Origin: an uncultured Candidatus Binatia bacterium
GTDB lineage: Bacteria; Desulfobacterota; Binatia; UBA9968; JAJDTQ01
Length of the DNA: 64,000 nucleotides
NCBI GenBank assembly: GCA_965242525.1
Contig: OZ251459.1
Coordinates: forward strand, 1,984,001 to 2,048,000
Direction of reading: 5' to 3'
In this document: in pieces, positions 6,285-62,076 of the stretch
Position numbering within the stretch: position 1 is the first letter of the stretch
Layout of the letters: every line of letters begins with the position of its first letter
Notes under the pieces: generated by a model
Told to the model about the DNA's origin: nothing
What the model saw: only the letters and a program-made list of their open reading frames with translations
The model's database searches: none
Position numbers and translations under genes: made by a program

Positions 6285-6371
6285 GCGAGGATGGCGGAAT
6301 AGGCAGACGCGCTAGCTTGAGGGGCTAGTGCCAGCAATGGCGTGGGGGTTCAAGTCCCCCTCCTCGCACCA
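6285..6371 (+). tRNA. tRNA-Leu (GAG)
   Basis: Acceptor stem GCGAGGA/TCCTCGC, discriminator A plus encoded CCA, anticodon arm CTAGC-TTGAGGG-GCTAG, long variable arm, GGTTCAAGTCC T-loop. Confidence 0.95.
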
Positions 6372-42918: not shown

Positions 42919-44211
42919 ATGCCGTCGGCCGACAACCTGCTGGACACCCTGCACGAAGTGCGGTCCCGAACCCTCGCCCTGGTGGAGGACCTCACGGACG
43001 AACAACTGATCGGCCCCAACCTCCCCATCGTCAACCCTCCGCTCTGGGAGATCGGCCACGTGGCCTGGTTCCACGAACGCTGGGCGCTCCGGCGCCTGCG
43101 CGGCCGCGACGCCATCCTCCCGCAAGGCGACGCCCTCTACAATTCTGCAACCGTCCCCCACGATTCCCGCTGGGACCTGGCGCTGCCGTCGCGGGAAGCG
43201 ACCCTCGACTACATGGCGCGCGTTCTCGATCGCATCTCGGAAGCACTGCCCGGCCGCGCGCCCGGACCGGAGGAAACCTACTTCCACCGACTGGGCGTCC
43301 TGCACGAAGACATGCACGCGGAGGCGCTGACCTACACGCGCCAGACCCTGGCCTACCCCGGGCCCTCGTTCCTCCCCCGCGGGCCGGCCTCGGCCGGCGG
43401 CCCCCACCCGGGCGACGCGGAGGTCCCCGGCGGCGAGTTCCTGCTCGGGGCAAGCCCGGACTCCCCCTTCGTCTTCGACAACGAGAAGTGGGGGCACCCG
43501 ATGACCGTGGCGCCCTACTGCATGGCCAAGGCGCCGGTGACCAACGCCGAGTTCGCCGCGTTCGTGGACGACCGGGGCTACGAGGATCCGCGCTGGTGGA
43601 GCGCCGCGGGCTGGGAGTGGCGCCGGACCGGAGGCGGACCCCATCCCGTGTACTGGCGTCGGGAGTCCCCCGGACGCTGGCTGGAGCGGACCTTCGACCG
43701 ATGGCTGCCGCTTGAGGGCCACCTCCCGGTGATCCACGTCAACTGGTACGAGGCCGAGGCATACTGCAACTGGGCCGGACGCCGGTTGCCCACCGAGGCC
43801 GAGTGGGAGATGGCCGCGGCGGTGGACCCCGCGGACCGAGCGGACCCGGAAGCGGCCAAGCGCCGTTTCCCGTGGGGCGGCGCGCCCCCCGACCCGGACC
43901 GCGGCAACCTCGACTGGGCCGGGGGCGGCCGGACGCCGGTGGACGCGCTTCCGGCCGGCGACAGCCCGGTGGGCTGCCGGCAGATGATCGGCAACGTGTG
44001 GGAGTGGACGGCCGACGTCTTCCACCCCTACCCCGGTTTCGTCCGGGACCCCTACGAGGAGTACTCCGAGCCCTGGTTCGGAGACCACCGGGTGCTGCGC
44101 GGCGGCTGCTGGACCACCCGCTCGCACCTCATCCGCAACACGTGGCGCAACTTCTACAAACCGGACCGCCGGGACGTCCTCGCCGGCTTCCGCACCTGCG
44201 CACGGCGATGA
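42919..44211 (+). CDS. senA: Selenoneine synthase SenA (EgtB-family DinB + FGE-sulfatase)
   Basis: PIVNPPLWEIGHVAWF and HEDMHAE iron ligands typical of the SenA clade; FDNEKW, RLPTEAEWE, GNVWEW, GFRTC. An in-frame GTG at 42763 overlaps the GH84 stop. Confidence 0.8.
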   Translation: MPSADNLLDTLHEVRSRTLALVEDLTDEQLIGPNLPIVNPPLWEIGHVAWFHERWALRRLRGRDAILPQGDALYNSATVPHDSRWDLALPSREATLDYMARVLDRISEALPGRAPGPEETYFHRLGVLHEDMHAEALTYTRQTLAYPGPSFLPRGPASAGGPHPGDAEVPGGEFLLGASPDSPFVFDNEKWGHPMTVAPYCMAKAPVTNAEFAAFVDDRGYEDPRWWSAAGWEWRRTGGGPHPVYWRRESPGRWLERTFDRWLPLEGHLPVIHVNWYEAEAYCNWAGRRLPTEAEWEMAAAVDPADRADPEAAKRRFPWGGAPPDPDRGNLDWAGGGRTPVDALPAGDSPVGCRQMIGNVWEWTADVFHPYPGFVRDPYEEYSEPWFGDHRVLRGGCWTTRSHLIRNTWRNFYKPDRRDVLAGFRTCARR

Positions 44212-44216
44212 CCGGA

Positions 44217-44445
44217 GGAACCCCTGAACAATCGAGGCATGGAAAGCGCGTCCTTCGACTTCGCTTCGCTACGCTCAGGACGAACGGGGGTAATCGTTCA
44301 GGGTTTCATGAAGGGAGAGTCTGGACAATTGGGCAGAGGGCATGAGTGCGCCCTTCGACTCCGCTTCGCTACGCTCAGGGCGAACGGGGGTGGAGGGTCA
44401 GGGCAAGGGAATCCACTCTCCATGTCTCGATTGTCCAGCGGTTCC
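44217..44445 (-). mobile_element. Two tandem IS5-like MITEs each carrying the 42-bp REP
   Basis: 44217-44308 (GGAACCCCTGAACAATCG...CGTTCAGGGTTTCA) and 44314-44445 (GGAGAGTCTGGACAAT...ATTGTCCAGCGGTTCC); the second is flanked by TGAAG on both sides. Confidence 0.72.
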
Positions 44446-44511: not shown

Positions 44512-44814
44512 GGCTCTTCCGGCTTTCGTGTGGGTAAGGCAGGAAGGAAAGGGAAGCGACATCACCGCGGAGGCTCACCCCGTCATTCCCGCGAAAGCAT
44601 GTCCTCGCGGAAGCGGGGGCGGGAATCCATCCGCTTTCCTCGCTCTCGTTGTACAAACCTCTCATACAGGGCGCCATGGGGTTTGCTCGCAAGGTCTGGA
44701 TTCCCGCTTTCGCGGGAATGACAAGACGGGGCTTTCGCGGGTATGACGGGATGAAGCTTTCGCGGGTATGACGGGATGGGGAGTGTCGCAATCCACACGA
44801 ATTCCTGAAGCGCC
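44512..44814 (+). mobile_element. ISL3-derived MITE with 8-bp TSD AACAAGGA, filled with CGTC REPs
   Basis: TIRs GGCTCTTCCGGCTTTCGTGTGGGT / ATCCACACGAATTCCTGAAGCGCC; AACAAGGA at 44504-44511 and 44815-44822. Confidence 0.85.
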
Positions 44815-44881: not shown

Positions 44882-44985
44882 CCGTTCATCCTGAGCGTAA
44901 CGTAGCGAAATCCTCCGTTCGTCCTGAGCGTAGCGAAGCGAAGTCGAAGGACGCGCTCATGCTCCCTCGATCGTCCAGGGGTTCC
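44882..44985 (+). repeat. Partial plus full 42-bp REP and an IS5-like MITE end
   Basis: CCGTTCATCCTGAGCG partial copy, full copy at 44915-44956, then CGATCGTCCAGGGGTTCC. Confidence 0.7.
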
Positions 44986-45093
44986 CGGGATGCCGCGAGG
45001 GAAACGACAGGGTCACAAATGAAGGAACCGAGGGCCGTCGCCGGCCCTCGCAAGGAAAGGACCGCGGAATTGGCAAACGACTCGCTCGAACGC

Positions 45094-46053
45094 ATGGCCG
45101 CCATCGCCCTGGTGACCCCCGCGGGACCCACCCGGCGCACGGGCAACCGCATCTCGGGGGGCCGGTGGGGGCGGATCCTCAGGGCATCGGGCCATCGGGT
45201 CCGGACCCTGGACCGCTACGACAGTGAACACTGCGACCTGCTCATCGCGCTGCACGCCCGCCGCAGCCACGAGTCCGTCCTGCGGTTCCGCCAACTCCAC
45301 CCCCACAGGCCCGTCATCGTGGTGCTGACCGGGACGGACCTGTACCACGACATCCGCGTCAACGAGGACGCCCAGGAGTCCCTCCGGCTGGCGAGCCGCC
45401 TGGTGGTGCTGCAGCAACAGGGGCTCCGGGAACTCTCCCCTGCACTCCAGCGGAAGACCCGGGTCATCTACCAGTCGGCGTCGCCCTGCACCCCTCGCCC
45501 CGGAGACCGGCGCAGGGCCTTCACCGTATCGGTGGCGGGCCACATGCGGACCGAGAAGGACCCGTTCCGCACGGCCATGGCGGTGCGCGGGTTGCCGTCC
45601 TCGTCCCGGATCCGAGTGCTGCACATGGGCGCCGCCCTGAGCGAGGACATGGAGCGGCGCGCCCGGCGGGAGGAAGAGCGGAACCCGCGGTACCGCTGGC
45701 TGGGGGAATTGGCGCACTGGCAGGCGCGGCAGATGCTCGCCAAGGGCCACCTCCTGTCCATTACCTCGCGCATGGAGGGCAGCTCCAACGTCCTGTGCGA
45801 GGCCCTGGCCTCCGGGGTTCCGGTGGCTGCCTCGAAGATCCCGGGACTGGTGGGGACCCTGGGCGAAGACTACCCGGGGTACTTCGAACTCGGTGACACC
45901 GGAGGGCTGCGGCGGCTGTTGCTCAGGGCCGAAGGCGACCCGGAGTTCTACCGGAGCCTGACGCGGCATTGCGCCAAGGCCGCGCCGCTGGTGCTCCCCG
46001 AGCGCGAAGTCCAAGCCTGGCGGCGCCTGGTGGACGAGGTCGCCGCCGGCTGA
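45094..46053 (+). CDS. senB: Selenosugar synthase SenB (TIGR04348-type glycosyltransferase)
   Basis: IALVTPA...TGNRISGGRW, LIALHARRS, VVLTGTDLY, GHMRTEKDPF, SRMEGSSNVLCEA, GTLGEDYPGYF. Confidence 0.85.
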   Translation: MAAIALVTPAGPTRRTGNRISGGRWGRILRASGHRVRTLDRYDSEHCDLLIALHARRSHESVLRFRQLHPHRPVIVVLTGTDLYHDIRVNEDAQESLRLASRLVVLQQQGLRELSPALQRKTRVIYQSASPCTPRPGDRRRAFTVSVAGHMRTEKDPFRTAMAVRGLPSSSRIRVLHMGAALSEDMERRARREEERNPRYRWLGELAHWQARQMLAKGHLLSITSRMEGSSNVLCEALASGVPVAASKIPGLVGTLGEDYPGYFELGDTGGLRRLLLRAEGDPEFYRSLTRHCAKAAPLVLPEREVQAWRRLVDEVAAG

Positions 46054-46168
46054 CTCCACGAGGGGCCGCGCCTGCATGGCGCCGGTGCCGTCGTTCCCGA
46101 GATGGATTCCCGCTTTCGCGGGAATGACGGGGAGTCGGCGTCCGGTTGCCGGCTTGCTGCTTTCCGGC

Positions 46169-47332
46169 TCACTCCGCGCCGGAGAGGACCTCCGTCAGCG
46201 CCTCGGCTACGGTGTCCAGCTCGGCGTGGGTGATGGTGAGGGGGGGCAGCAGCCGCACCACGGTGGCGCCCGCGGGCAAGGCGAGCACGCCTCGCTCCAT
46301 GAGCCGGACCAGGTACGGCTGGGACTTCTCCTTGAGCTCGATGCCGATCATCAGGCCCAGTTGCCGCAGTTCCCTGACCTTGGGCAAATCCCTCGCCTCC
46401 AGGCGCTCCCGCAGGTAGGCGCCCTTTTCCGCGGCTGCCTGGTCGAGCCGTTCCTCGACCATGGCGTCGATGGCCGCAAGGGACGCGGCGCAGGCCAGGG
46501 GGTTGCCGCCGAAGGTGCTGCCGTGCCTGCCCACCGGGGGCGTCACCTTGTCGGAACAGAGCACCGCGCCCATGGGGATGCCCCCGGCCATGGCCTTGGC
46601 CAGGCACAGGATGTCGGGCTCCAGGCCGAAGTGCTCGCAGGCGAACATCTTTCCGGTGCGGCAGAAACCGGTCTGGACCTCGTCGATGACCAGCAGGACG
46701 CCCCGGTCCCGGCACAGCTCGCCCACTTGTGAGAAGAACTCCGCCTTGCCGAGGTTCACCCCCCCTTCCCCCTGGACCACCTCCAGCAGCACGGCCGCGG
46801 TGTCGTCGCCCACCTGCGCTTCCAGCTTGGCGAAGTTGTTGAAGGGCGCGAACCGGAAACCTTCCACCACCGGCACGAAGGGCTCCCGGTACTCGCGCGT
46901 GAAGGTGGCGCTCAGGGCGCCCATGGTGCGGCCGTGGAACCCGCGCATGGCGCACACGAGCTCGTGCTTGCCGGTGGTGAAGCGGGCGAACTTGATGGCC
47001 GCTTCGATGGTCTCGGCGCCCGAGTTGCACAGGTAGGCGCGGGTGAGGCCGCCCGGGGCGATGCCCACCAGCCGCTCCAGCAGCCGCGCCTTGACGTCGT
47101 TGTAGAAGATCCCCGGGCAGGTCAGCAGCCGCCGGGCCTGCTCGGCCACCGCCTCCGCCACCTTCGGGTGGCAGTGGCCCAAGCTGGCCACGCCGTGGCC
47201 GGCCGCGCAGTCGATGTACTCCCGGCCGGCGTCGTCCCACACCCGGGCGCCCTGGCCGCGCACCAGCACCACGTCGCGCTTGGGATAGACGTCGAACTCG
47301 TACCGCCGCTGCAACTCCATCCAGTCGCTCAC
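46169..47332 (-). CDS. lysJ: [LysW]-aminoadipate/glutamate semialdehyde transaminase (LysJ/ArgD)
   Basis: Class III aminotransferase: CNSGAE, FHGRTMGALS, VQGEGG, DEVQTG, LAKAMAGG, HGSTFGGNPLACAA; last gene of the lysW operon. Confidence 0.85.
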   Translation of the reverse strand: MSDWMELQRRYEFDVYPKRDVVLVRGQGARVWDDAGREYIDCAAGHGVASLGHCHPKVAEAVAEQARRLLTCPGIFYNDVKARLLERLVGIAPGGLTRAYLCNSGAETIEAAIKFARFTTGKHELVCAMRGFHGRTMGALSATFTREYREPFVPVVEGFRFAPFNNFAKLEAQVGDDTAAVLLEVVQGEGGVNLGKAEFFSQVGELCRDRGVLLVIDEVQTGFCRTGKMFACEHFGLEPDILCLAKAMAGGIPMGAVLCSDKVTPPVGRHGSTFGGNPLACAASLAAIDAMVEERLDQAAAEKGAYLRERLEARDLPKVRELRQLGLMIGIELKEKSQPYLVRLMERGVLALPAGATVVRLLPPLTITHAELDTVAEALTEVLSGAE

Positions 47333-48120
47333 CGGATCACCGTTCCCTTCCCCGCCAGGGCGTCGCGCACCGGGTGCTCCACCCTGCCGTCGCTCATGAC
47401 GACTCTCTCCGCCCCTTCCTCGAACAGCCGCCGCAACGCCAGCATCTTGCGCTTCATGCGCCCGGCCACCTGGGCCTCCCGCTGCTCCAGCTCGGCCGCG
47501 CGGATGTGCGGGACCACCGTGCCCTCGTCGTCCTTGTCCTCCAGGAACCCGGGGGCTTCGATGAGCTGCAACACCACCTCGGCGTGGAAGGCGGCCTGGA
47601 GCGCGTTCACGATGTCGTCGTTCTCGGAGTTGATGGCGGTTCGGCTCTCGTCGATGATGGGGATGGAGAGCACGGGCCGGTAGCCGTGGTCCAGCAGCAG
47701 CCGCAGCAACTCCTCGTTGACGCTCCGGGGCTTCCCCGAGAAGTCCCGGACGATCAGCGTCTTGCCGTCCTTCCGCACCCGGATGCCCTTGTTGCGCCGG
47801 CCCTGGACGGCCCTGCCATCGATGCCGGAAAGGCCCACGGCGTTGACCCCGTTCCGTTGCAGCAACTCCACGATGCGCTTGTTCTGGAGGCCCGCATACG
47901 CCATCAGGATGGCGTCCATGGCCGCCTCGTCCGAGCGCACGCTGGTGTAGCCCGACACCGACGTCAGCACCTGGGTGGGAGCGCCGAGCTTGGCCGCAAG
48001 CGCGTCGCGCACCGCGTTGGCCCCGTGCACCAACACGAAGGGGTCGGACACCTCGGCTAGGTCCCGGGCGACGCCCGGCAGGTTGATGGCGCTGCCGCCG
48101 CCCACCTTCACCAGGATCAT
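47329..48120 (-). CDS. lysZ: [LysW]-aminoadipate/glutamate kinase
   Basis: MILVKVGGG, LVHGAN, TSVSGYTSVRSD, NAVGLSGIDG, GRMKRK. Confidence 0.85.
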   Translation of the reverse strand: MILVKVGGGSAINLPGVARDLAEVSDPFVLVHGANAVRDALAAKLGAPTQVLTSVSGYTSVRSDEAAMDAILMAYAGLQNKRIVELLQRNGVNAVGLSGIDGRAVQGRRNKGIRVRKDGKTLIVRDFSGKPRSVNEELLRLLLDHGYRPVLSIPIIDESRTAINSENDDIVNALQAAFHAEVVLQLIEAPGFLEDKDDEGTVVPHIRAAELEQREAQVAGRMKRKMLALRRLFEEGAERVVMSDGRVEHPVRDALAGKGTVIR

Positions 48121-48755
48121 CGGCGCCGCTCCACCGTGCGGTTGGGGATGGCGCTCCAGCCCCGCGGGTCCGGCACGGTCTCGGAGCTCACCGTGAAGCC
48201 CCGGTCGCTCCGGCGGGCGCGCAGCCGGAAGTATTCCGGGTCCTCGTTGAACAAGGACCCCACATAGACGTTCTCCCGGTCGGCGATGACCATGTTCATG
48301 GCCCTGACGTACCGGGTCCTGCGGACGATTACGTCCATGCCCTTCCTCATGGCCGCGGCCATGTCGCCCTTGTCGAAGCGCTTGACGTAGTTGAACACCT
48401 TCTCCGCGCCGATGCGGCCGGCCTCGGATATGCGCACGCCCCGGAGCTCGCCGTTGAACGCGAACGCGTATTTGCCGTCGCAGAACGGCATGTTGTTCTC
48501 CACCGCGATGCCCTCGTCCCGGAAAGCGCTGCGCGCGTGGCCCAACAGCAGGGTGGAAGCGCCGAACTGCCCCAGGTCGTCCTCCCAGATGGGCCGGACG
48601 TTGCGATAGACCTTCCACTCGCCGTCCGCCAGGTAGGCGCAACCCCAGCCGTGGCCCTGGTATTCCGGGCTGTTCCGGGCGACCTGGGCGAGGTGCGACA
48701 GACGCTCGCCGATGTCGAACGGTTCCGACTCCTTGACGCAAAGCAGGCGGCACAT
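48117..48755 (-). CDS. Class II glutamine amidotransferase-like Ntn hydrolase (EgtC/YafJ-like)
   Basis: Cys at position 2 (MCRLL), HGWG, GHARSA, ENNMPF, FNG; ATGA overlap with lysZ. Confidence 0.8.
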   Translation of the reverse strand: MCRLLCVKESEPFDIGERLSHLAQVARNSPEYQGHGWGCAYLADGEWKVYRNVRPIWEDDLGQFGASTLLLGHARSAFRDEGIAVENNMPFCDGKYAFAFNGELRGVRISEAGRIGAEKVFNYVKRFDKGDMAAAMRKGMDVIVRRTRYVRAMNMVIADRENVYVGSLFNEDPEYFRLRARRSDRGFTVSSETVPDPRGWSAIPNRTVERRR

Positions 48756-48785
48756 GGACGAAGGACCCCCGATGACCCCCGGTTC

Positions 48786-49838
48786 CTACCCTCCGGGATG
48801 CAGCCCGGGAAACTCCAGACCCAAGGTCTCGTCGAAGCCGTTCATTAGGTTGAAGGCCTGGACCGCCTGTCCCGCGGCCCCCTTCATGAGGTTGTCCAAG
48901 GCGCTGAGCACCACCAGCCGATCCGACCCTTTCTCCTTCTGGAAGCCGATGTCGCAGTAGTTGGCGCCGCTCAGCAGCTTGGGCTCCGGGTAGCGGTAGA
49001 TGCCGTCGGCCTCCTTGACCATGCGGATGAAGGGTTCGCCGCGGTACGCCTCCCGGTAGATCTTCCACACGTCCTTCTCTTCCAAGGGCTCGCGCAGGAA
49101 CAGGTGCGCGGTGGCCAGCACGCCCCGCACCATCTCGATGGAGGTGGCCGAGAAATAGACGCGGATCCGTTGGCCGAAGCTCAACTCCTGCACGATCTCC
49201 GCGCTGTGGCGGTGCAGCGTGGGCATGAACGAGCGCACCGCGCCGCTTCGCTCCGGGTGGTGGGACGCCTCGCTGGCGGCGTTGCCTCCTTCGCTGGAGC
49301 CCACCTTGACCTCCACCACCGTGCGGTCCGGTTCCACCAGCCCTTTCCTGAACAACGGGTACAGGCCGAGGATCGTAGCGGTGGCGTTGCAGCCCGCGCC
49401 GGTGACCAGGCTCGCCCCCCGGATCTCGTCCCGGTGCAGCTCCGGGACGCCATAGACGAACTCCTTCAGGAGTTCCGGGCGCAGGTGGGGCTTGCCGTAC
49501 CAGCGCCGGTACTCGTCCGGGTCGTCGAGCCGGAAGTCCGCGCTCAGGTCCACGAGCCTGGGGGCCAGCCCCCGGAAATGGTCGATGCGCTCCATGGCTT
49601 GGCCGTGGGGCAGGCAGAGGAACAGCAGGTCGCAAGAGCCGAGTTCGTCCATGCGGCGGAACCGGAGCTGGGTGCGCTTCCGCAGGTTTGGGTGGGCTTT
49701 GGACGCGAACTTCCCCGCGTAGCGCTCCGAGGTGACCTCGCACACCTCCACCCCGGGATGCCACAGGAGCAGCCGCAGGAGCTCGCCGCCCGTGTAACCC
49801 GACGCCCCCGCGATGGAGACCTTCAGCTTCTCGCCCAC
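48786..49838 (-). CDS. lysY: [LysW]-aminoadipyl/glutamyl-phosphate reductase (LysY/ArgC)
   Basis: GASGYTGGELLRLL, HPNLRK, DLSADFRL, AGCNAT, SHHPERSG, DNLMKGAAG; GTG start at 49838. Confidence 0.88.
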   Translation of the reverse strand: MGEKLKVSIAGASGYTGGELLRLLLWHPGVEVCEVTSERYAGKFASKAHPNLRKRTQLRFRRMDELGSCDLLFLCLPHGQAMERIDHFRGLAPRLVDLSADFRLDDPDEYRRWYGKPHLRPELLKEFVYGVPELHRDEIRGASLVTGAGCNATATILGLYPLFRKGLVEPDRTVVEVKVGSSEGGNAASEASHHPERSGAVRSFMPTLHRHSAEIVQELSFGQRIRVYFSATSIEMVRGVLATAHLFLREPLEEKDVWKIYREAYRGEPFIRMVKEADGIYRYPEPKLLSGANYCDIGFQKEKGSDRLVVLSALDNLMKGAAGQAVQAFNLMNGFDETLGLEFPGLHPGG

Positions 49839-49953
49839 GGTCCGAGCCTCCCCCTCCCATGCGACATCGGAGCAACCTTCCCCGTTCGTCCGCGGCGATG
49901 CCGGCGGCCATGGACGCGGATGCAGCCCCCATGCGAGACCGGAACGACCTTCC

Positions 49954-49995
49954 CCGTTCGTCCTGAGCGTAGCGAAGCGAAGTCGAAGGACGCGC
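49954..49995 (+). repeat. 42-bp REP between lysX and lysY
   Basis: Full copy, preceded by a duplicated flank with about 72-bp period (CCCATGCGA...ACCTTCCCCGTTCGTCC at 49856 and 49928). Confidence 0.8.
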
Positions 49996-50052
49996 TTTCC
50001 CAAGGGAGAACCGCATCGTTCCGACGTTCCCCATGCGTCTTTGCGGCCCGGG

Positions 50053-50949
50053 TCACGACGCCCCCGGCCCCGGCCGGTCCGCGCCGTCCTTCCGGTCCCG
50101 TTCCTCCCGGGCCGCGGCGAGCACGTGCTCGACGATGAGCCCGGGGATGTTCACCCCGGTGGTGTCGATGCTGTTGCGGAACTCCATGGTGTAGTTGACC
50201 TCGTTGACCAGCAGCCCCTCCGGGGTCTCGAACAGGTCCGCGGCCACGATGCCGCCCCCCACCGCCCTGGCCGCGCGGACCGAGAGGTCCCGCAATTCGT
50301 CCGTCACCGGACAGTTCTCGGCGCGTCCGCCCCGGGCCGTGTTGGTGATCCAGTGGCCGCTGTAGCGGTAGATGGCGGCAACGCATTCGTCCCCGATGAC
50401 GAAACTGCGGATGTCCCGCCCGGACTTCTCCACGTACTGCTGGATGTAGAATATGGAGTGGTGGTAGGTGCCCAGAGTCGCCTTGTGCTCCAGGATCGAC
50501 TCCGCGGCGTCCCGGTCGTTGACCTTTGCCAGGAGCCTGCCCCAGGAACCCACCGCGGGCTTGAGCACCACCGGATAGCCCATCTCCTCGATGGCCTCCA
50601 GGGTGGACTGCTCGGTGAACGCGATGCGCACTTCGGGCTGGGGCACCCCGTGCTCCCGGAGATGCACCGACGTGAGGATCTTGTCGCCGCACACCCCGGC
50701 CACCAGCGACGAGTTGACGCAGCGCACGCCCGCGCTCTCGAACAGGCGCAGGCCATGCAGGGCCCGGGAATGGTTGATGCACCGCTCCAGCAGCACGTGG
50801 AGGTCGAAGCGGTCCCGGCCCAGGTTGAAGGAGAGCTTGCGGTCGTCGATCATCCTGAGATCGACCCCGGCCCGCTGGCGAAACTCCCGGATCAGGAGTT
50901 TCTCCTCGGGCCGCACCAGCGAATGCAGCAAACCGACCTTGAGGCTCAT
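50053..50949 (-). CDS. lysX: ATP-grasp LysW ligase (LysX/ArgX)
   Basis: [60 protein letters not shown]. Confidence 0.92.
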
Positions 50950-51110
50950 TCTCCCCAGTCTTCCTCTTCCTGAGGCGCCTCGGTGACCTCCGGCGGGTCG
51001 AGGCTCGTGACCTCCAACTCCGTGCCGCAGTCGGCGCAGGCGATCAACTCGCCCTCCACTGCGTCGTCCTCCAGTTCCCACTCGGCTCCGCACACCGGAC
51101 ATTCGACCAT
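50946..51110 (-). CDS. lysW: Amino-group carrier protein LysW
   Basis: 54 aa, [10 protein letters not shown]...[10 protein letters not shown]...PQEEEDWGE: zinc finger plus the diagnostic EDWGE terminus; too short for the ORF track. Confidence 0.95.
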
Positions 51111-51156: not shown

Positions 51157-52548
51157 CTAGCGGGGGGAGCCGTCTGCCGCCACCGCGGCGATGGCGTCCC
51201 GCAAGACGGCGACCATCTCGTCGATCTGCTCCCGGGTGACCACCAGCGGCGGACACAACGCGAGGGTGTCGCCCGGGCACACCCGCAGCAGGAGGCCGTT
51301 GGCCAGCGCCTCTTCCAGGACCCTTCGCCCCACCTGCTCTTCCGGGGGAAATGGCTCCCGGGTGGCCTTGTCCTTCACCAGCTCCACCGCGGCCATGAGT
51401 CCCCGGCCGCGCACGTGGCCGACCGTGGGCAGGTCCGACAGGGTGGCCACCCGCTCCTGCAGGTAAGGACCCAACTCCGCGGCCCGCTCCACCAGGCGCT
51501 CCCGTTGGATGATGTCGAGGTTGGCCAGGGCCGCGGCGCACGCCACCGGGTGGCCGGTGTAGGTGTAGCCGTGGAAGAACGCGTCGTCGCCCTTGGCCAG
51601 GAGGGTCTGGAACAGATCCTCCTTGAACAGCATGGCGCCCAGCGGGAGATAGCCGCTGGTGATGCCCTTGGCGGTGATGAGCACATCCGGCGTCACGCCC
51701 TCCCCGGCGCACGCGAACAGGCTGCCGGTGCGCCCGAAGCCCGTGATCACCTCGTCGCAGACCATCAGGACGCCGTGCCGGTCACAGATCTCCCGGATGC
51801 GGGCAAGCCACCCCCGGGGCGGCACGACCACCCCGCCCCCGCCCTGGACGGGCTCGGCCACGAAGGCCGCCACCGCGTCCATGCCCTCCTGCTCGACGAT
51901 CCTTTCGAGCTCGTCGGCGCAGGCCAGCTCGCAGCCCGGCCAGGTCTTCCCCAACTCACAGCGGTAGCAGTGGGGCCGCGCCATGTGTTGCACTCCCGGC
52001 AGGCCCGGCTCCATCTGCCGGTTGAAGACCGGTATCCCCGTGAGCATGGCTGCGCCGCTGGAGGAGCCGTGGTAGCCGTGGTTCAAGGTGACGAACCGGG
52101 TGCGCCGGGGCTCCCCCCTGGCCTTCCAGTAGGCCCGCACCAGGCGGATCATGCTTTCGTTGGCCTCGGAGCCGCCGGAGGTGAACACCACCCGGGTGAG
52201 ACCCTCCGGAGCCATCTCCGCCAACCGGGACGCCAGCCGGACGGTGGGTTCCGAGGTGGGACCCACGAGGGTGGGCGCGAAGGCGAGCCGGTCCATCTGT
52301 TCGGCCGCCGCCCGGGTGATCTCGGTCCGCCCGTGGCCCACGTGCACGTTCCAGAGGGTGGAGAGGCCGTCGATGTAACGCTTGCCCAGGGCGTCCCAGA
52401 GATGGACCCCCTCGGCCCGGACGAATACCGGCAGGGTGCCGGACTGGTGCCGGGACAACGGCACGAAGCCGTGGACCAGGTGGTCCCGGTCCGCCCGGCT
52501 CAAGGCCGCAGCCCGCTCCAGGTCAACGGGAATCGGGACAGGGGGCAT
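51157..52548 (-). CDS. Class III (omega) aminotransferase
   Basis: GLSTLWNVHVGHGR, SGGSEANE, GYHGS, AEPVQGGGG, DEVITGFGRTG, AKGITSGYLP, HGYTYTGHP. Confidence 0.9.
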   Translation of the reverse strand: MPPVPIPVDLERAAALSRADRDHLVHGFVPLSRHQSGTLPVFVRAEGVHLWDALGKRYIDGLSTLWNVHVGHGRTEITRAAAEQMDRLAFAPTLVGPTSEPTVRLASRLAEMAPEGLTRVVFTSGGSEANESMIRLVRAYWKARGEPRRTRFVTLNHGYHGSSSGAAMLTGIPVFNRQMEPGLPGVQHMARPHCYRCELGKTWPGCELACADELERIVEQEGMDAVAAFVAEPVQGGGGVVVPPRGWLARIREICDRHGVLMVCDEVITGFGRTGSLFACAGEGVTPDVLITAKGITSGYLPLGAMLFKEDLFQTLLAKGDDAFFHGYTYTGHPVACAAALANLDIIQRERLVERAAELGPYLQERVATLSDLPTVGHVRGRGLMAAVELVKDKATREPFPPEEQVGRRVLEEALANGLLLRVCPGDTLALCPPLVVTREQIDEMVAVLRDAIAAVAADGSPR

Positions 52549-52551
52549 GGC

Positions 52552-53583
52552 TCACAGCCGGTAGTAGCGCCTGGGGTTGTCGCACAGGATCTTCTTGCGG
52601 AGGTCGGGGGCCAGGTCCTCGCGGGCGAAGAAGTCCGGCAGGTCGTGGAAGAACTCCGAGCGCGCCCGCTCGTGGGGGTAGTCCGAGGCCCACAGCACCT
52701 GGTCCCCTCCCAGCCGGTCCAGCACGTAGGGCAGGCTCTTCTCGTCCACCTCGCAGGTGAAGAAGATGTTGCCGCCCCGTATGATGTCGCTGGGGCGCTG
52801 CTGCACCGCCAGGGCGTGGCCGCGGCGCTCCCAGTTCTCGTCCAGTGCGTCCATCATGAACGGCACCCAGCCGGTGCCGCATTCGAGGTAGGCCACCCGC
52901 AATTTGGGGAAGCGGTCGAAGACGCCGCTGTTCACCATGCTCATGATCTGCATCATCTGCGGCATGGTGTGCTCCAGGGGGCGCGCTTCCGCCAAGCTCT
53001 CGAAGATGTCCAGGCCCAGGCCGGTGACCGGCCCGCCGTGGACCCCCAAAGGGCAGTCCAGCCGTTCCGCTTCGGCGTAGAGGGGGTCGAACTGGCTCCC
53101 TCCCAGGCCCACCAGCGGGGCCATGACCGACGGGATCACCCCCGACACCATGCCCAGTTCCTCGACGCAGCGGCGCAACTCCGCGACCGCGGCGCCGATG
53201 TCCTGCACCGGCAGCAGGGCCACGCCCTTGAGCCGATCCGACCGGCGCCCGAAGCAGTCGTGGAGCCAGTCGTTGTAGGCCCGGGCCACCGCGACGGCCC
53301 AGCCCTTGTTGCGGATCTGGCCGTGGAACAGGGCGTTGCTGGGGTAGAGGACCGTCTGTTCGATGTTCGACTCTTCCAGGAAGCCCAGCCAGTTGTCCGC
53401 GTCCGGCACCTCGGCCTTGTGGCGGGAGGACATGCCCCGCATCCAGCCGTCGGTGAGGGGAAAGAAATAGTATTCCCGGGTCCAGTCCTTGTCGCACCAG
53501 GGTTCCGGCAGGTAGCGGCGCAGGTCCTTGTCCTGGTCCACCACGTGGCCGTCCGCGTCGATGATCCCGTAGTCGAGTTCCAT
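52552..53583 (-). CDS. Amidohydrolase_2 family protein
   Basis: IDADGHV, AYNDWL, GVHG, LECGTGWVP, ASDYPH, DNPRRYY. Confidence 0.88.
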   Translation of the reverse strand: MELDYGIIDADGHVVDQDKDLRRYLPEPWCDKDWTREYYFFPLTDGWMRGMSSRHKAEVPDADNWLGFLEESNIEQTVLYPSNALFHGQIRNKGWAVAVARAYNDWLHDCFGRRSDRLKGVALLPVQDIGAAVAELRRCVEELGMVSGVIPSVMAPLVGLGGSQFDPLYAEAERLDCPLGVHGGPVTGLGLDIFESLAEARPLEHTMPQMMQIMSMVNSGVFDRFPKLRVAYLECGTGWVPFMMDALDENWERRGHALAVQQRPSDIIRGGNIFFTCEVDEKSLPYVLDRLGGDQVLWASDYPHERARSEFFHDLPDFFAREDLAPDLRKKILCDNPRRYYRL

Positions 53584-53615
53584 AGGGAAAAACCTCCGTA
53601 TGCGCTTCGGCGTAC

Positions 53616-55085
53616 TCAGCGTATCATCGAGCGGCCGGACTCGCCCGAATAGTTGACGAACACGGTCTTGAGCTCGGTGAAGAAGTTGATGCCTTCCTCG
53701 GACATCTCCCGCTCCCCCACCCCGGTGGCCTTGATGCCGCCGAAGGGAAGCTGGGCCTCGCCGCCGATGGTGGGTTCGTTCACGTGGACCATGCCGGTCT
53801 CCACTTCCTCCACGAAACGCATGACCGTCTGCACGTCCCGGGTGAAGATGGACGTGGTGAGGCCGAACTCCACCGAGTTGGCGAAGGCGATGGCCTGGTC
53901 CAGGTCCCCGGCCGCGGCCACCGAAAGCACCGGACCGAAGATCTCCTCGCGGAAGATGCGCATGTCGGGGGTCACGTCGTCGAACACCGTGGGCTCCACG
54001 TAGTAGCCGTGGTCCAGCCCCGGGGGCCGGCCGCCCCCGGCCACCAGCCGGGCCCCTTCCTGCTTGCCCACCTCGATGTACTCCAGGTCGGTCTTCCACT
54101 GGCTCTCGTCCACCGCGGGCCCCATGTCCACGTCGCCGTCCAGGCCCGGCCCCACGCGGATCTTCCGGGCGTGGTCCTCCAGCCGGGCCACCAGTTCGTC
54201 CTTGGCGGCGCCGATGGCGATGACCCGGGAGGTGGCGGTGCAGCGCTGGCCGGTGGAGCCGAAGGCCCCGTCCCGGATGGCCACCGCGGCCTTGTCCAGG
54301 TCGCAGTCGGGCATGACGATGACCGCGTTCTTGCCGCCCATCTCGCAAGTCACCTTGGCGCCCCGGGATGCGGCCTTCACGTAGAGGTCGCTGCCGATCT
54401 GGTTGGAGCCGGTGAACGACACCACCGGGATGCGCGCGGAACCCACCATGGTCTCGCCCACGTCCGACCCCGACCCCACCACCACGTTGAAGACCCCCGG
54501 CGGAAGGCCCGCTTCCTCATAGACCTCCGCCAGCAGGCCCGCGGTGGCGGGAGTCAGTGAGGCGGGCTTCAGCACCACCGAGTTGCCCGCCACCAGCGCC
54601 GGGGCCGACTTCCACACCGGTATGGCCCAGGGAAAGTTCCACGGCGCGATCAACCCCACCACCCCCATGGGCTGCCGGATGGTGTAGGTGAAGGTGTCCC
54701 GGGCCTCGGACGGAAGGGTCTTGCCGCCGATGCGGTAACCGGCCCCGGCGTTGTACTCCAGCAGCGAGACCCCCTTGAGCACCTCGCCCCGGGCCTCCTT
54801 GAATATCTTCCCCTCCTCGCGGGTCATGGTCTCGGCGATCTCGTCCGCGCGCCGGCGCGCGATGTCCGCGGCCCGCCAGAGCACCCGCCCCCGCTCCGGC
54901 CCCGGGGTCTTCCTCCACCCCCGGAAAGCGGCCGCCGCGGCGTCGATGGCCCCCTCGGTGTCCGCAGCCGTGGCCATGGGGAACTCGGCGATCACGTCCC
55001 GTGTGTCCGCGGGGTTGACGTTGCGCACCCGCCTGTCGGAATCGGGCTGGCGCCACTCGCCGTTGATGTAGGAACCGGTATGCAT
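53616..55085 (-). CDS. Aldehyde dehydrogenase (KGSADH-like)
   Basis: PWNFP, FTGS, EMGGKN, GQRCTA, EEIFGPV, PFGG. Confidence 0.92.
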
Positions 55086-55207
55086 GCGCGTCTCCTTGGG
55101 GTTTCCTTGGCGTCTCCTTGGGATCGTGCACCGTGCGTTGACGTGAGTGCGATTAAAAAAGACTAACCGTGCCGTGTCAAGCGTTGGCGGGCCGTACCCG
55201 CCTTGAT

Positions 55208-55277
55208 CCGTTCGTCCTGAGCGTAGCGAAGCGAAGTCGAAGGACGCGCTCTTCCCCCGGGATTGTCCAGAGGTTCC
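55208..55277 (+). repeat. 42-bp REP plus IS5-like MITE end
   Basis: REP at 55208-55249, then GATTGTCCAGAGGTTCC. Confidence 0.72.
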
Positions 55278-55316: not shown

Positions 55317-58300
55317 ATGAGACCCTCGCCTCTCCTTCAACCCTCGCCCTTCCTTCGCGCCGCGGTCCTCGCAGCCGGACTCCTGCTGGTTCCGTCCGCG
55401 GCCTGGAGCAAATCGGCCAAGGAAGTGTTCCAGCAAGCCGCCCCCTCGGTAGTCGTGGTGCTGGCCCTGGGCAGGAACGGCGCCACCACCGGCCAAGGCA
55501 GCGGCGTGGTGGTGGGCCGCACGGAAGTGGTCACCAACTGCCACGTGGTGGAAGACGCCGCGGGCATCGCGGTGCGCCAAGCCTCGGACCACACGGGCGA
55601 AACGACTTGGCGCATGGAGGCGTCCGTGCTGGCCCGGAACGACGAACGCGACCTGTGCCTGTTGTACGTGGACCAGTTGTCGGACCCGCCGGCACCCTCC
55701 ACGGCGCGCCTCGGTTCGGCCAAGACCTTGTCAGTGGGCGAGGAAGTCTATGCCATCGGCGCCCCCCGGGGCCTGGAACTGTCCCTGTCCCGCGGCATCG
55801 TGTCCCAACTGCGCGGCGTCCTGGGCAAGCGCCGTGGCCCCTTGATCCAGACCGACGCCGCCATCTCCCCCGGCTCGTCCGGCGGCGGCCTCTTCAACGC
55901 CAACGGCGAACTCGTCGGGATCACCACCTTCAAGCGGAGAGGCGAGAACCTGAACTTCGCCCTTCCCGCGGATTGGGTACGGGAGTTGCGGGAGCAGGGC
56001 CGGTCGGCGTTGGAGGCGGCGAAACTGCAGGCGGAGTGTGAGGAGAATCCGGATTTCGACTGTCTTGTGGCGCTGGCTGTGATGGATGCGGGGATGGAGG
56101 ATGCTGGTTTGCGAAGGCTTACCTTGTGGAACATCGCGGAGGCGCTACGTAACATCACAGAAATGCAAACCAAAGCAGGAAACGTGACTGATGCACTTCA
56201 AACCGCGCAGAAAATCGACGATGCTGGTTTCCGTGCAACGGTATTGAAAGGTATCAAAATCGCACACAGAGACATTCTAGCCGCACAAGCGAAAGCGGGA
56301 AACGTGACTGGTGCACTCAATACTGCGCAAAAAATCGACGACGCCGAGTGGCGTACAGAGATATTGGCTAAGATCGCAGTCACACAAGCGAAAGCGGGAA
56401 ACGTAGCTGACGCATTCGAAACCACGCAGACAATCGACGACCCGGAGTGGCATGCACGAACATTGGGTAGCATCGCATACGCACAAGTCGAAGCGGGAAA
56501 CGTGCCTGCTGCACTCAATACTGCGCAAAAAATCGATCGTGCAAAGGAGCGTGCAGCGATATTGACACTCATTGCACTCGCACAAGTCGAAGCAGGAGAA
56601 TCACAAGCGGCCAGAAAGACGCTAGCTAATGTAATCAATACCGCACAGACAATGGACGACCCGGAGTGGCGTGCACAGACATGGAGCTTCATCGCAGCTA
56701 TACAAATGGAGATGGGAAACGTGCCTGGTGCGCTCAATGCCGCGCAAAAAATCGACGACGCCGAGTCGGGTGCATATCTATTGAGCGAAATCGCAGTCAC
56801 ACAAGCGAAAGCGGGAAACGTGGCTGACGCACTCAAAACCATGCAGAGAATCAGCGACGCGGAGTGGCGTGCAACGGCATTAAGAGCCATTGCAGCCGCA
56901 CAAGCGAAAGCGAGAGAACCACAAGCAGCCAGAAAGACGTTGGCTAATGCAATCAATGCCGCACAGACAATCGACAATGCGTACAGGCGTGCAAGGGCAT
57001 TGGAAGATATTAAAACCGCACACAGAGATATTGCAACTGCACAAGCGAAAGCGGGAAACGTGGCTGACGCACTCGAAACCACGCAGAGAATCGACGACCC
57101 AGACTGGCGTGCACGAACGTTGACCGGCATCGCAGCCGCACAAATGGAAACGGGAGAGCGGCGATCAGCCAGAAATACATTCGCTGAGGCAATCAATGCC
57201 GCACAGACAATCGACAAGGCGTGGGCCCGTTCGTCGAGATTGACAGAAGTTGCAGCCGCACAAGCAAAAGCAGGGGAGCAGCAAGCAGCCAGAAATACAT
57301 TCACTAAGGCAATCAATGCCACGCAGAGAATCGACGACCCGGAGGGGCGTGCAGGAACATTGACTGGCATCGCAGCCGCACAAGCGAAAGCGGGAGAGTG
57401 GCAAGCGGCCAGCAATACATTCACTGAGGCAATCAATGTCGCACAGACAATCGACAATGCGTACCTGCGTGCATTGGGATTGAAGAAGATCGCAACTGCA
57501 CAAGCGAAAGCAGGAAACGTGGCTGACGCACTCGAAACCACGCAGAGAATCCACGACCCGGACTCACGTGCACAAACGTTGACCGGCATCGCAGCCGCAC
57601 AAATGGAAACGGGAGAGCGGCGATCAGCCAGCAATACATTCGCTGAGGCAATCAATGCCGCACAGACAATCGACAAGGCGTGGGCCCGTTCGTCGAGATT
57701 GACAGAAGTCGCAGCCGCACAAGCAAAAGCAGGGGAGCAGCAAGCAGCCAGAAATACATTCACTGAGGCAATCAATGCCACGCAGAGAATCGACGACCCG
57801 GAGCGGCGTGCACAAACATTGACTGGCATCGCAGCCGCACAAATGGAAACGGGAGAGCGGCGATCAGCCAGAAATACATTCACTGAGGCAATCAATGCCG
57901 CACAGAGAATCCATAGTGCAAAGCCCCGCTCGTCGAGATTGGAGGAAATCGCAACCGCACAAGCGAAAGCGGGAGAGCAGCAAGCGGCCAATCGGACGTT
58001 GACTGCTGCTTTCGATGCGGCACAGTATCTCAATACGCCCTACGATCGCCTTACGACCTCTGCAAGAATCTTGTCCACCCAGGCGAAAACAGGAAATGTC
58101 AATGACGCGATGGAAGCCTTCAAGAAGACATTCAAGGCCCGGGAGACACATCTTTCGGAAGCGGCGTTGAGGCTGGATCGCTCAGATCGAGTCCTGGTCC
58201 AGCGTGGTCTCGCGTCGTTGGGCAAGGACGTGGGGGCTGCCGACGGAGTTTTCGGACAACGGACCCGGGCGGCGGTGCGTTCGTGGCAAGTGGATGCAGG

Positions 58301-58448
58301 GTTCAAGGCCACCGGCCACCTGACACGAGAGCAGGCGGCCAGACTGATCGCCGCCGGTCGTCGTGCTGCCGCCGCGGCGACGGAAACACAACGGCTGAAG
58401 GAGTTTTGCGCTGAAGTCCCACAGTCCGAGCTTTGCCGTGACCTTTGA
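55317..58448 (+). CDS. Secreted trypsin-like (S1C) protease with TPR-like repeats and C-terminal peptidoglycan-binding domain
   Basis: Signal peptide; triad motifs TNCHV, DLCLL, ISPGSSGG; many IAxAQAKAG helical repeats; VQRGLASLG...ADGVFGQRTRAAVRSWQ...TG (PG_binding_1). Confidence 0.85.
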   Translation: MRPSPLLQPSPFLRAAVLAAGLLLVPSAAWSKSAKEVFQQAAPSVVVVLALGRNGATTGQGSGVVVGRTEVVTNCHVVEDAAGIAVRQASDHTGETTWRMEASVLARNDERDLCLLYVDQLSDPPAPSTARLGSAKTLSVGEEVYAIGAPRGLELSLSRGIVSQLRGVLGKRRGPLIQTDAAISPGSSGGGLFNANGELVGITTFKRRGENLNFALPADWVRELREQGRSALEAAKLQAECEENPDFDCLVALAVMDAGMEDAGLRRLTLWNIAEALRNITEMQTKAGNVTDALQTAQKIDDAGFRATVLKGIKIAHRDILAAQAKAGNVTGALNTAQKIDDAEWRTEILAKIAVTQAKAGNVADAFETTQTIDDPEWHARTLGSIAYAQVEAGNVPAALNTAQKIDRAKERAAILTLIALAQVEAGESQAARKTLANVINTAQTMDDPEWRAQTWSFIAAIQMEMGNVPGALNAAQKIDDAESGAYLLSEIAVTQAKAGNVADALKTMQRISDAEWRATALRAIAAAQAKAREPQAARKTLANAINAAQTIDNAYRRARALEDIKTAHRDIATAQAKAGNVADALETTQRIDDPDWRARTLTGIAAAQMETGERRSARNTFAEAINAAQTIDKAWARSSRLTEVAAAQAKAGEQQAARNTFTKAINATQRIDDPEGRAGTLTGIAAAQAKAGEWQAASNTFTEAINVAQTIDNAYLRALGLKKIATAQAKAGNVADALETTQRIHDPDSRAQTLTGIAAAQMETGERRSASNTFAEAINAAQTIDKAWARSSRLTEVAAAQAKAGEQQAARNTFTEAINATQRIDDPERRAQTLTGIAAAQMETGERRSARNTFTEAINAAQRIHSAKPRSSRLEEIATAQAKAGEQQAANRTLTAAFDAAQYLNTPYDRLTTSARILSTQAKTGNVNDAMEAFKKTFKARETHLSEAALRLDRSDRVLVQRGLASLGKDVGAADGVFGQRTRAAVRSWQVDAGFKATGHLTREQAARLIAAGRRAAAAATETQRLKEFCAEVPQSELCRDL
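57035..57845 (+). repeat. Near-identical 459-bp tandem duplication in the repeat region
   Basis: TGACCGGCATCGCAGCCGCACAAATGGAAACG occurs at 57121 and 57580 (offset 459 bp = 153 codons), with long flanking identity. Confidence 0.8.
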
Positions 58449-58590
58449 GCACCCTCGAAGGCACGGCGGAAAAGCGCGCTTGTCCTTCGACTTGGCCGAA
58501 GGCGCCGTGCTCGTACTTAGGCTGCCTTCCTTCACCTTGAGTTTCGCTTTGCAGAGGAACCCCTGAGCATCGGGGGAACCGGCCATCCCC

Positions 58591-59088
58591 ATGTCCTCAT
58601 CCGCCAACTTGAAGCACGTCACCATCTACACGGACGGAGCCTGCCTCGGGAACCCGGGGCCGGGGGGCTACGGCGTCGTCCTCCTATACAACGGCAAACG
58701 GCGGGAGATCAGCCACGGCTACCGCAAGACCACCAACAACCGCATGGAGATCATGGCCGTCTTGGCGGGCCTCCGGTCCCTGAAGGAGCCGTGCCGGGTG
58801 ACCCTTTACAGCGACTCCCGGTACGTGGTGGACGCCATGTCCAAGGGATGGGCCAAGCGGTGGCGGGAACGGAACTGGAAGAGGAACGCCAGGGAGTCCG
58901 CCCGGAACCCCGACCTATGGGCCGAGTTGCTCGACCTGTCCGACCGGCACCGGGTGGACTACCGCTGGATCAAGGGACACGCGGGCGATCCGCTAAACGA
59001 GCGTTGCGACGATCTCGCAGTGGCCGCCGCCCATGACCCGGATAGGAGCGTCGATGCAGCCTACGAGAACCAAACGGGGATGTCCTGA
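58591..59088 (+). CDS. rnhA: Ribonuclease HI
   Basis: YTDGACLGNPGPGG, TTNNRME, SDSRYV, WIKGHAG, NERCD. Confidence 0.96.
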   Translation: MSSSANLKHVTIYTDGACLGNPGPGGYGVVLLYNGKRREISHGYRKTTNNRMEIMAVLAGLRSLKEPCRVTLYSDSRYVVDAMSKGWAKRWRERNWKRNARESARNPDLWAELLDLSDRHRVDYRWIKGHAGDPLNERCDDLAVAAAHDPDRSVDAAYENQTGMS

Positions 59089-59118
59089 TTCACGGGAAGG
59101 CGTCGACACGAATTTTCC

Positions 59119-59316
59119 GGCTCTTCCGGCTTTTGTGTGGGTAAGGTAGGAGGGGAAAGGTGCGACAGGGTTCAAGGACCGACCATGGAGGAAGCGATGC
59201 CAGACCGGGAGTTGTACGCGAGGCTACTGGGGATCGAAGCGCCGTGGCGAGTGGAGGGAGTGGAGTTGAGGCTGGAAGAGGGAAAGGTGGTGGTACAGGT
59301 TGGACACGGGAGGTAG
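59119..59316 (+). mobile_element. ISL3-family IS remnant (left end plus 39-codon transposase stub)
   Basis: GGCTCTTCCGGCTTTTGTGTGGGTAAG end; ORF 59197-59316 MPDRELYARLLGIEAPWRVEGVELRLEEGKVVVQVGH resembles ISL3 transposase N-termini. Confidence 0.75.
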
Positions 59317-59371
59317 GGAGTAAAGTTATCCAGAGTGTGACCACGAGGCATCAGTCGATATCTCCGCTATT

Positions 59372-61966: not shown

Positions 61967-62076
61967 TGAACACCTTCCTTCTTAGTCGATCCCTATAGAT
62001 GGGACGTCAATGCTAGACTGGCGTGACGGGGCGGCGGACCGTAAGGCCGGCCGAGGCTAGCCGTACACCATTCTCA

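Follow-up and report, generated by a model that had tools for sequence, protein, structure and literature searches.

In Thermus and archaea, the step that releases the product from the amino-group carrier protein LysW is carried out by LysK, an M20 metallopeptidase of the ArgE/DapE family (NF003367, TIGR01902). Here we describe a LysW operon in a 64,000-nucleotide stretch of DNA from an uncultured Candidatus Binatia bacterium (contig OZ251459.1, positions 1,984,001 to 2,048,000; the whole stretch is referred to as the window), which carries a gene for a putative N-terminal nucleophile (Ntn) hydrolase. For substrate and activities alike, we infer that this protein probably cleaves gamma-amides on the terminal residue of LysW, both freeing lysine or ornithine from the loaded carrier and deamidating LysW that ends in Gln. 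The proposed reaction and pathway step are the same as for LysK, at the gamma-glutamyl isopeptide of the LysW C-terminus. However, the two proteins are not homologous: the hydrolase is predicted to have an Ntn fold with a Cys nucleophile, has no metal site and comprises 212 residues, compared to ~350 for LysK.

Other described systems share parts of this chemistry. EgtC hydrolyzes a gamma-glutamyl amide, according to the accessible text of PMC9103826. Like the hydrolase, it is a stand-alone Ntn hydrolase of the class-II amidotransferase type, of similar size, with Cys2 and a closely matching fold (template-modelling (TM) score 0.79-0.84). The two differ in sequence (17-19% identity), in a ~15-residue insert after the Asn-Gly motif that is missing from the hydrolase, in a motif Asp that is replaced by Gly, and in gene clustering, the neighbours of the hydrolase being LysW genes and not egt genes. 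Dop removes the gamma-linked partner from the C-terminal Glu of Pup and, where Pup ends in Gln, also deamidates this residue to the ligation-competent Glu (accessible text of PMC8599861). The same logic is proposed here: Gln and Glu endings alternate among lineages in LysW too, and it is this genetic pattern that suggests a dual activity of the hydrolase. In contrast, Dop is glutamine-synthetase-like, with an unrelated fold and mechanism, and Pup is a degradation tag whereas LysW carries a biosynthetic intermediate. The glutaminase domains of GlmS and PurF adopt the same fold as the hydrolase and share its N-terminal Cys, Arg and Asn-Gly oxyanion motif; the hydrolase differs from them in having no synthase domain, in missing the Asp that we take to bind the alpha-amino group, and in remaining below the Pfam gathering scores.

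The operon occupies positions 46169-51110 of the window and contains the following genes, given in the order of transcription:

50946-51110, minus strand: lysW, zinc-ribbon amino-group carrier of 54 residues with the tail EEEDWGE (PF21344 67.2 bits; TIGR01206 65.8 against a cut-off of 53.2)
50053-50949, minus strand: lysX, ATP-grasp ligase that loads the carrier (TIGR02144 345.4 against 275.6; Pfam RimK and LysX_preATP_grasp)
48786-49838, minus strand: lysY, ArgC-type reductase (TIGR01850 390.5 against 233.6), with its probable start at the GTG at 49838
48117-48755, minus strand: candidate LysW gamma-amide hydrolase, an Ntn hydrolase of 212 residues with a Met-Cys start
47329-48120, minus strand: lysZ, [LysW]-aminoadipate kinase (NF010659 251.7 against 223)
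46169-47332, minus strand: lysJ, class-III aminotransferase and final gene of the operon (TIGR00707 428.7 against 410.05)

Open reading frames and family scans confirmed the gene order lysW-lysX-lysY-orf-lysZ-lysJ and the gene overlaps reported in a first-pass annotation of this DNA. The overlaps are ATGA for lysW/lysX and for the hydrolase gene and lysZ, and GTGA for lysZ/lysJ. The lysX-lysY spacer of 214 nt contains a copy of a repeat element, and a gap of 30 nt separates lysY from the hydrolase gene. As also annotated, the operon ends against the convergent gene senB, 115 nt from the end of lysJ. The lysJ product scored 460.9 with the LysJ equivalog model NF042418, under the cut-off of 700. 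Both lysW and the hydrolase gene are present in single copy in the genome. No riboswitch or other RNA family was found near the operon, the sole Rfam match in the window being a tRNA at 6285-6368. Beside the hydrolase, the operon thus encodes LysW and all known LysW-dependent enzymes but one (four of five), and the genome contains no LysK.

LysK was searched for at a genome completeness of 98.96%. The LysK model TIGR01902 matched eight M20 paralogues, the best with 47.1 bits against a cut-off of 163.1. All eight are located outside the window (C1:1984001-2048000), in agreement with the first-pass observation that no M20 peptidase is present there. When scanned singly, none of the paralogues reached the LysK, ArgE or DapE equivalog cut-off (best NF003367 score 76.7 against 363). 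A search of the genome for lysK, which the first-pass annotation had suggested, was thus negative by both models.

We determined the distribution of the hydrolase and LysK in samples of three phyla, in which LysW was found in 16 of 401 Bacteroidota, 23 of 251 Acidobacteriota and 25 of 301 Planctomycetota genomes. Among these 64 LysW-positive genomes, 26 had the hydrolase only, 34 LysK only, none had both and 4 had neither (Fisher test, 4.6e-14). Over a total of 110 genomes the two enzymes never occurred together: none of 74 hydrolase genomes had a LysK over cut-off, and none of 36 LysK genomes had the hydrolase. In 50 hydrolase genomes taken from the loci described below, LysK exceeded the cut-off in 0/50 (best 106.5 bits), and in 6/50 there was no TIGR01902 match at 1e-5. 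The 13 further LysW genomes of Bacteroidota all contained the hydrolase ~3 kb from lysW and no LysK, with no match at 1e-10 in 5 of them. In Acidobacteriota, LysK was detected in 15 of 251 genomes; of 27 genomes tested, 10 had the hydrolase, all without LysK, the 15 LysK genomes were all without the hydrolase, and two (G616 and G507) had neither. The 25 LysW genomes of Planctomycetota comprised 21 with LysK, two with the hydrolase and no LysK, and two with neither. Six of the LysK genomes in this phylum gave only weak matches, over part of the sequence, to other amidotransferase-like genes (38.7-44.3 bits), compared to at least 138.8 bits for true members of the hydrolase family. LysK-type operons have the order W-X-Y-Z-J-K, and the last gene encodes a [LysW]-lysine hydrolase (NF003367 364.3 and 392.5 against 363). 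In a tree of LysX, LysY and LysZ from 62 operons, the hydrolase type forms one side of a single branch (Shimodaira-Hasegawa-like approximate likelihood-ratio test (SH-aLRT) support 88), corresponding to one change. The operon of locus L142 fell on the LysK side of this tree, on a long branch of uncertain placement.

The first-pass annotation had claimed that the orf is a metal-independent, non-orthologous replacement of LysK. Absence of lysK from the genome and mutual exclusivity of the two genes both support this claim, the function itself being one that we infer. Profiling for such exclusivity, also suggested in that annotation, thus gave no overlap in either direction (0/74 and 0/36), although the result is statistically weaker than the raw counts, as discussed below.

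Next, a scan of one genome per species gave 546 relatives of the hydrolase, and we analyzed the genomic context in the best 79 loci. These include Binatia, Calditrichota, Gemmatimonadota, Ignavibacteria/Melioribacter, KSB1, several gammaproteobacterial orders, Acidobacteriota, Planctomycetota and Rhodothermaceae; in all, LysW operons with a member of the family occur in at least eight phyla. Caldithrix abyssi and Melioribacter roseus are cultured carriers of the operon, and locus L096 is from a MAG labelled as the latter species. A LysW-pathway gene was present within 500 nt and on the same strand in each of the best 79 loci. The gene immediately upstream of the hydrolase was lysY in 65 of the 72 loci with enough flank, the gene immediately downstream was lysZ in 71 of 76, and the complete set of five pathway genes was present in 51 of 58. 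Recurrence of the arrangement in 79/79 best loci is far beyond chance. The first-pass annotation had described a LysW operon variant of this window; the operon type is real but is not peculiar to the window, being widespread across phyla.

Many lineages have a homocitrate-synthase-like gene between lysW and lysX. In an acidobacterial operon (L134) the order is lysW, homocitrate-synthase-like gene, HacA, HacB, a homoisocitrate dehydrogenase (HICDH)-like gene, lysX, lysY, hydrolase, lysZ, lysJ. The entire aminoadipate route is thus contained in one operon, with the Ntn hydrolase as its sole hydrolase. The in-operon homocitrate-synthase-like genes of other phyla scored 324.9 and 336.9 against an equivalog cut-off of 413.55. 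In the acidobacterial loci L137 and L142, a divergent member of the hydrolase family follows lysJ, which is the usual position of LysK.

Variations of the operon were also observed. At L050:3497-4327 and L060:9146-9982, lysY and the hydrolase gene are separated by a second LysX paralogue with 61-64% identity to the LysX of the window. This arrangement recalls the LysX/ArgX pairs of archaea in which LysW serves the synthesis of both lysine and arginine. In one Binatia locus (L025:13595-16991), a second, partly truncated lysY-hydrolase-lysZ-lysJ block is found ~1 kb downstream of the first.

To which family does the hydrolase belong? The orf remained below the gathering score of every Pfam family (GATase_6 18.6 against 27, GATase_4 14.7 against 23); some of its relatives carry a precomputed PF13230 assignment. 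EgtC (TIGR03442) was the sole NCBIfam match, at 43.6 bits against a cut-off of 218.65 (28.7 in the six-frame search), and no M20 match was obtained in Pfam or NCBIfam. A structural model, folded with a 30-row alignment, had a predicted local distance difference test (pLDDT) score of 95.3 and a predicted TM (pTM) score of 0.91. The nearest solved structures were those of EgtC (4zfj, 4zfk and 4zfl, with the TM scores and identities given above), followed by uncharacterised class-II amidotransferase-like proteins, PurF and GlmS, and the Foldseek probability was 1.00 to EgtC, PurF and GlmS. The model thus indicates a class-II amidotransferase-type Ntn fold with Cys2 as the nucleophile. The first-pass assignment as a Cys-nucleophile Ntn hydrolase is therefore upheld by model, fold match and conserved residues.

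A Met-Cys start is present in 28 of the 30 aligned members, the remaining two rows being without the first four residues. Residues C2, R3, H73, R75, N88, P90, N101, G102, G113 and G116 are invariant or nearly invariant in this alignment. At 90% identity the family falls into 3062 clusters, most of them with 207-224 residues, and at 50% identity 373 representatives were obtained (E <=0.001). Its members carry generic names in databases and the ESM Atlas ('class II glutamine amidotransferase family protein', 'hypothetical protein'). The isoelectric point (pI) of the whole protein was spread over 5.3-10.0 among members and is thus uninformative as to a basic surface for LysW docking. Predicted fusions were found of the hydrolase with a LysZ-type kinase (four cases) and of a LysY-type reductase with the hydrolase (two cases), each a single cluster (P0272, P0273, P0274, P0177, P0276 and P0277). 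In P0273, which is encoded on a 3.2-Mb contig, 99% of the hydrolase is covered. These fused gene models may be real or may be frameshift artefacts of overlapping genes.

The hydrolase is a discrete family, distinct from EgtC. The term 'EgtC-like' used in the first-pass annotation therefore holds for the fold but not for family membership, given the score of 43.6 against 218.65. That the protein acts as EgtC in ergothioneine or selenoneine metabolism, together with senA and senB, is highly improbable. The closest solved fold and the sole NCBIfam match are indeed EgtC, and senA and senB adjoin the operon in Binatia. However, the TIGR03442 score is far below the cut-off, and no EgtC over cut-off is present in the genome. 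Moreover, senA and senB are convergent with the operon, are not co-transcribed with it and are not found around it outside Binatia. LysW genes form the context in 79/79 best loci, and the Asp of the T-D-S-E motif is missing. The first-pass annotation had argued against an EgtC role in ergothioneine metabolism, and the sub-threshold score, the missing motif Asp and the restriction of the senA/senB neighbourhood to Binatia bear this out.

We next compared the C-terminal tails of LysW. In hydrolase-type operons, 22 of 85 LysW sequences ended in ...EDWGQ directly followed by the stop codon, compared to 0 of 34 in LysK-type operons (Fisher p = 4e-4). Operons of loci L062, L068 and L134 are examples with a Gln-ended LysW. 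These Gln-ended carriers of the hydrolase type were distributed as follows:

First loci: 14/63
Further Acidobacteriota: 6/8
Further Planctomycetota: 1/1
Further Bacteroidota: 1/13

LysW ended in Glu in the other 63 of 85 hydrolase-type operons, and at least ten switches between Glu and Gln were counted on the operon tree. LysX activates the gamma-carboxylate with ATP, a reaction that an ATP-grasp ligase cannot perform on a gamma-carboxamide. Gln-ended LysW therefore needs gamma-amide hydrolysis before LysX can act, and judged from the sequences, a glutaminase-type Ntn hydrolase is the obvious candidate for this deamidation. The Gln ending thus ties the hydrolase to the gamma-position of the last LysW residue, independently of the LysK argument. 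The tails also differ at LysW residue 44 (window positions 50979-50981), the Glu before the tail Ala-Pro. This residue is invariant in 27 hydrolase-type LysW sequences, whereas LysK-type LysW mostly has Leu, Pro, Val or Arg at this position, with Glu in 2/34. It may be a recognition determinant or a lineage signature.

Could the hydrolase only service the carrier, by deamidating Gln-ended LysW or proofreading misloaded LysW, while another enzyme releases the product? The Gln ending in 22/85 operons points directly to the need for a deamidase, and the genome encodes eight uncharacterised M20 paralogues. However, the gene is kept in the 63 of 85 operons in which LysW ends in Glu. A pure service role would also leave the release step without an enzyme in 74/74 genomes, some of which are without any TIGR01902 match. 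Moreover, an enzyme that hydrolyzes the gamma-amide of a terminal Gln has the chemistry required for the gamma-isopeptide as well, as seen with Dop and Pup (accessible text of PMC8599861), and family members occupy LysK's own position in L137 and L142. We therefore consider a service-only role unlikely and favour an enzyme that both releases the product and deamidates the carrier. By analogy with Dop and Pup, it could be the dual-function enzyme of a second, widespread carrier pathway, which would free lysine or ornithine in each cycle and would also mature a Gln-ended 'pro-LysW', thus using the Dop/Pup logic with an Ntn fold. For this more far-reaching proposal the arguments are about evenly balanced.

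To analyze the active site, we aligned the family by MAFFT (~20% identity) with the GlmS of the same genome and with three EgtC-like proteins (125-203 bits to TIGR03442). The latter were the best matches (202.7, 195.5 and 125.1 bits) in 50 genomes searched for EgtC, none of which had a protein over cut-off. The motifs H-x-R, N-x-x-P and N-G align across the hydrolase family, the EgtC-like proteins and GlmS. After N-G, the hydrolase family has ~15 residues fewer than the other proteins, and their T-D-S/T-E motif corresponds to (I/T)-G-(A/S)-(E/K/Q). The Asp of this motif aligns with the invariant Gly116, the first residue of helix 116-125 in the model. Alignments from the sequence search of the PDB end at the Asn-Gly motif, short of the Gly116 region. 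In GlmS and PurF, glutamine is presumably bound through its free alpha-amino group by the Asp and through its alpha-carboxylate by the Arg (Arg73, Asn98, Gly99 and Asp123 in GlmS). Retention of the Arg with loss of the Asp would, on this low-identity alignment, suggest as substrate a glutamyl residue with a free carboxylate and an acylated amino group, as is the case for the C-terminal residue of a protein.

In the proposed mechanism, Met1 would be removed and Cys2 would attack the gamma-carbonyl of the terminal glutamyl residue of LysW, with Asn101 and Gly102 as the oxyanion hole. Arg75 would hold the free alpha-carboxylate of the terminal residue, and Gly116, in place of the alpha-amino-binding Asp, would accommodate the peptide chain of LysW. 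Cleavage of LysW-gamma-lysine or LysW-gamma-ornithine would then produce the free amino acid and regenerate LysW-Glu. By the same chemistry, Gln-ended LysW would be deamidated and would become usable by LysX.

Alternatively, an M20 or other amidohydrolase encoded elsewhere in the genome could be the actual LysK, the Ntn protein being a glutaminase, an amidotransferase subunit or a protein with a role unrelated to the LysW C-terminus. The class-II amidotransferase fold and the presence of M20 paralogues in most hydrolase genomes are in line with this possibility. However, the conversion of aminoadipate to lysine needs no ammonia at any step, and the aminotransferase LysJ is retained. The Asp that binds the alpha-amino group of glutamine is an invariant Gly in this family. 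Furthermore, 11 of 63 hydrolase genomes have no TIGR01902 match at the thresholds used, and the Ntn gene is single-copy and operon-tied in 79/79 best loci. This alternative is thus quite unlikely.

Several observations nevertheless weigh against assigning product release and carrier deamidation to the hydrolase. Product release could be due to one of the eight uncharacterised M20 paralogues of the genome, acting as a cryptic LysK, or to a member of a different hydrolase family. Four LysW-positive genomes have neither enzyme (G616, which has a 143-bit LysK-like fragment, G507, G761 and G928), and the genomes in the distribution counts are mostly metagenome-assembled genomes (MAGs) of unstated completeness. 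Exclusivity amounts essentially to one ancient replacement, with a possible second event in L142. As it traces to about one or two events, the Fisher values overstate independence. The active-site argument is based on a MAFFT alignment at ~20% identity and on residue roles from the structural literature, and hhalign of the family alignment against the glutaminase domain of the genome's own GlmS gave a probability of 0.56 over 17 columns and no usable alignment. The predicted complex of the hydrolase with LysW scored 0.52 (runs 0.52, 0.49 and 0.54), compared to 0.01 for the best of three controls; the runs share at least 98% of contacts, with a partner pLDDT of at least 84. In calibration, 58 of 80 solved complexes and 2 of 110 mismatched pairs attained the mark for this score, but only 7 of the 80 solved complexes, and both passing mismatches, did so at 0.60 or less. 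The complex prediction is therefore weak support.

The gene content of the genome adds to these counterarguments. Both lysA (524.1 bits) and ArgJ (425.5 bits) are present, and there is no dedicated homocitrate synthase or homoaconitase in the genome (best TIGR02146 score 271.8 against 413.55). Across 36 LysW-bearing genomes tested, of both operon types, lysA was over cut-off in 22, and the LysW route is thus often not the sole route to lysine. It may be so in 7 of 26 hydrolase-type genomes tested, in which lysA was absent at 1e-40. ArgC-like and ArgD-like paralogues are also encoded in the Binatia genome. A tblastn search for genes of the aminoadipate route gave best matches of 28-32% identity, located in an apparent leucine cluster. 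This cluster (C1:1960510-1966784), ~18 kb before the window, holds the only genes near the window that resemble homocitrate synthase and isopropylmalate dehydrogenase or belong to the aconitase family. The Binatia operon may make either lysine, from aminoadipate supplied by shared leucine enzymes or by upstream genes, or ornithine. The role proposed for the hydrolase is identical in either case.

The LysW carrier pathway is known; what is new is a candidate for its last step that is not homologous to LysK, together with the Gln-ended carrier. If the assignment is correct, the last step of LysW-dependent lysine or ornithine synthesis gains a second, unrelated enzyme, and the Gln end in a quarter of these LysW genes is explained. 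The hydrolase type is seemingly the rule in Bacteroidota (Ignavibacteria and others), being present in 16/16 of the LysW-positive genomes sampled there, and is frequent in Binatia, Calditrichota, Gemmatimonadota and Acidobacteriota as well as in some Gammaproteobacteria. We know of no other class-II amidotransferase-type Ntn hydrolase that acts on the C-terminal residue of a protein, and this would be the first case. The enzyme would also offer a metal-free tool for the release of cargo from gamma-linked carrier proteins. No description of the hydrolase in the LysW pathway was found in the searchable literature, which extends neither to subscription journals nor to supplementary files. In its accessible text, a 2025 paper on the LysW pathway continues to assign the hydrolase step to LysK, and the word amidotransferase does not occur in it (PMC12998189). 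For Caldithrix abyssi, the accessible part of the genome paper places LysWXZYJ and Hcs in the eight-gene locus Cabys_3146-3153 without naming a LysK (PMC5317091). Metabolic reconstructions that demand LysK would wrongly score the pathway as incomplete in such organisms, with C. abyssi as an example.

Finally, we examined the surroundings of the operon in the window, where the following genes were identified:

42919-44211: senA, selenoneine gene (NF041186 516.5 against 420)
44959-46053: senB, selenoneine gene, convergent with the LysW operon (TIGR04348 390.5 against 300)
51157-52548, minus strand: class-III aminotransferase directly upstream of lysW, from the family scan
52552-53583, minus strand: Amidohydro_2 protein upstream of lysW, from the family scan
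53616-55085, minus strand: aldehyde dehydrogenase upstream of lysW, named from its translation only

As with senA and senB, whose position beside the LysW operon is kept in Binatia loci only, the three upstream genes (51157-55085) adjoin the operon in the Binatia loci L022-L039 and not in other phyla. They may be co-transcribed with the LysW operon and might supply or process the substrate of the carrier.

An intergenic, GC-rich repeat of ~60-74 nt is present in both orientations at these positions:

44217-44303
44335-44403
44901-44985
49939-50000, inside the lysX-lysY spacer
55194-55257, upstream of the aldehyde dehydrogenase gene

The copies were assigned to repeat families D2, I2 and I4, and in the lists of open reading frames the repeat reads ...SFDFASLRSGRT... 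It looks like an element of the repetitive extragenic palindromic (REP) or miniature inverted-repeat transposable element (MITE) type. A second repeat of ~25 nt forms a hairpin and occurs in three tandem copies at 44697-44780 and in one further copy at 46103-46136. The latter is located in the 115-nt lysJ-senB interval and might function as a terminator. Three tandem repeats of 99 nt (56159-56476) mark the edge of a stretch of low G+C content (56001-62000; 0.47-0.57 compared to ~0.68) with strong AT skew, which may be foreign DNA.

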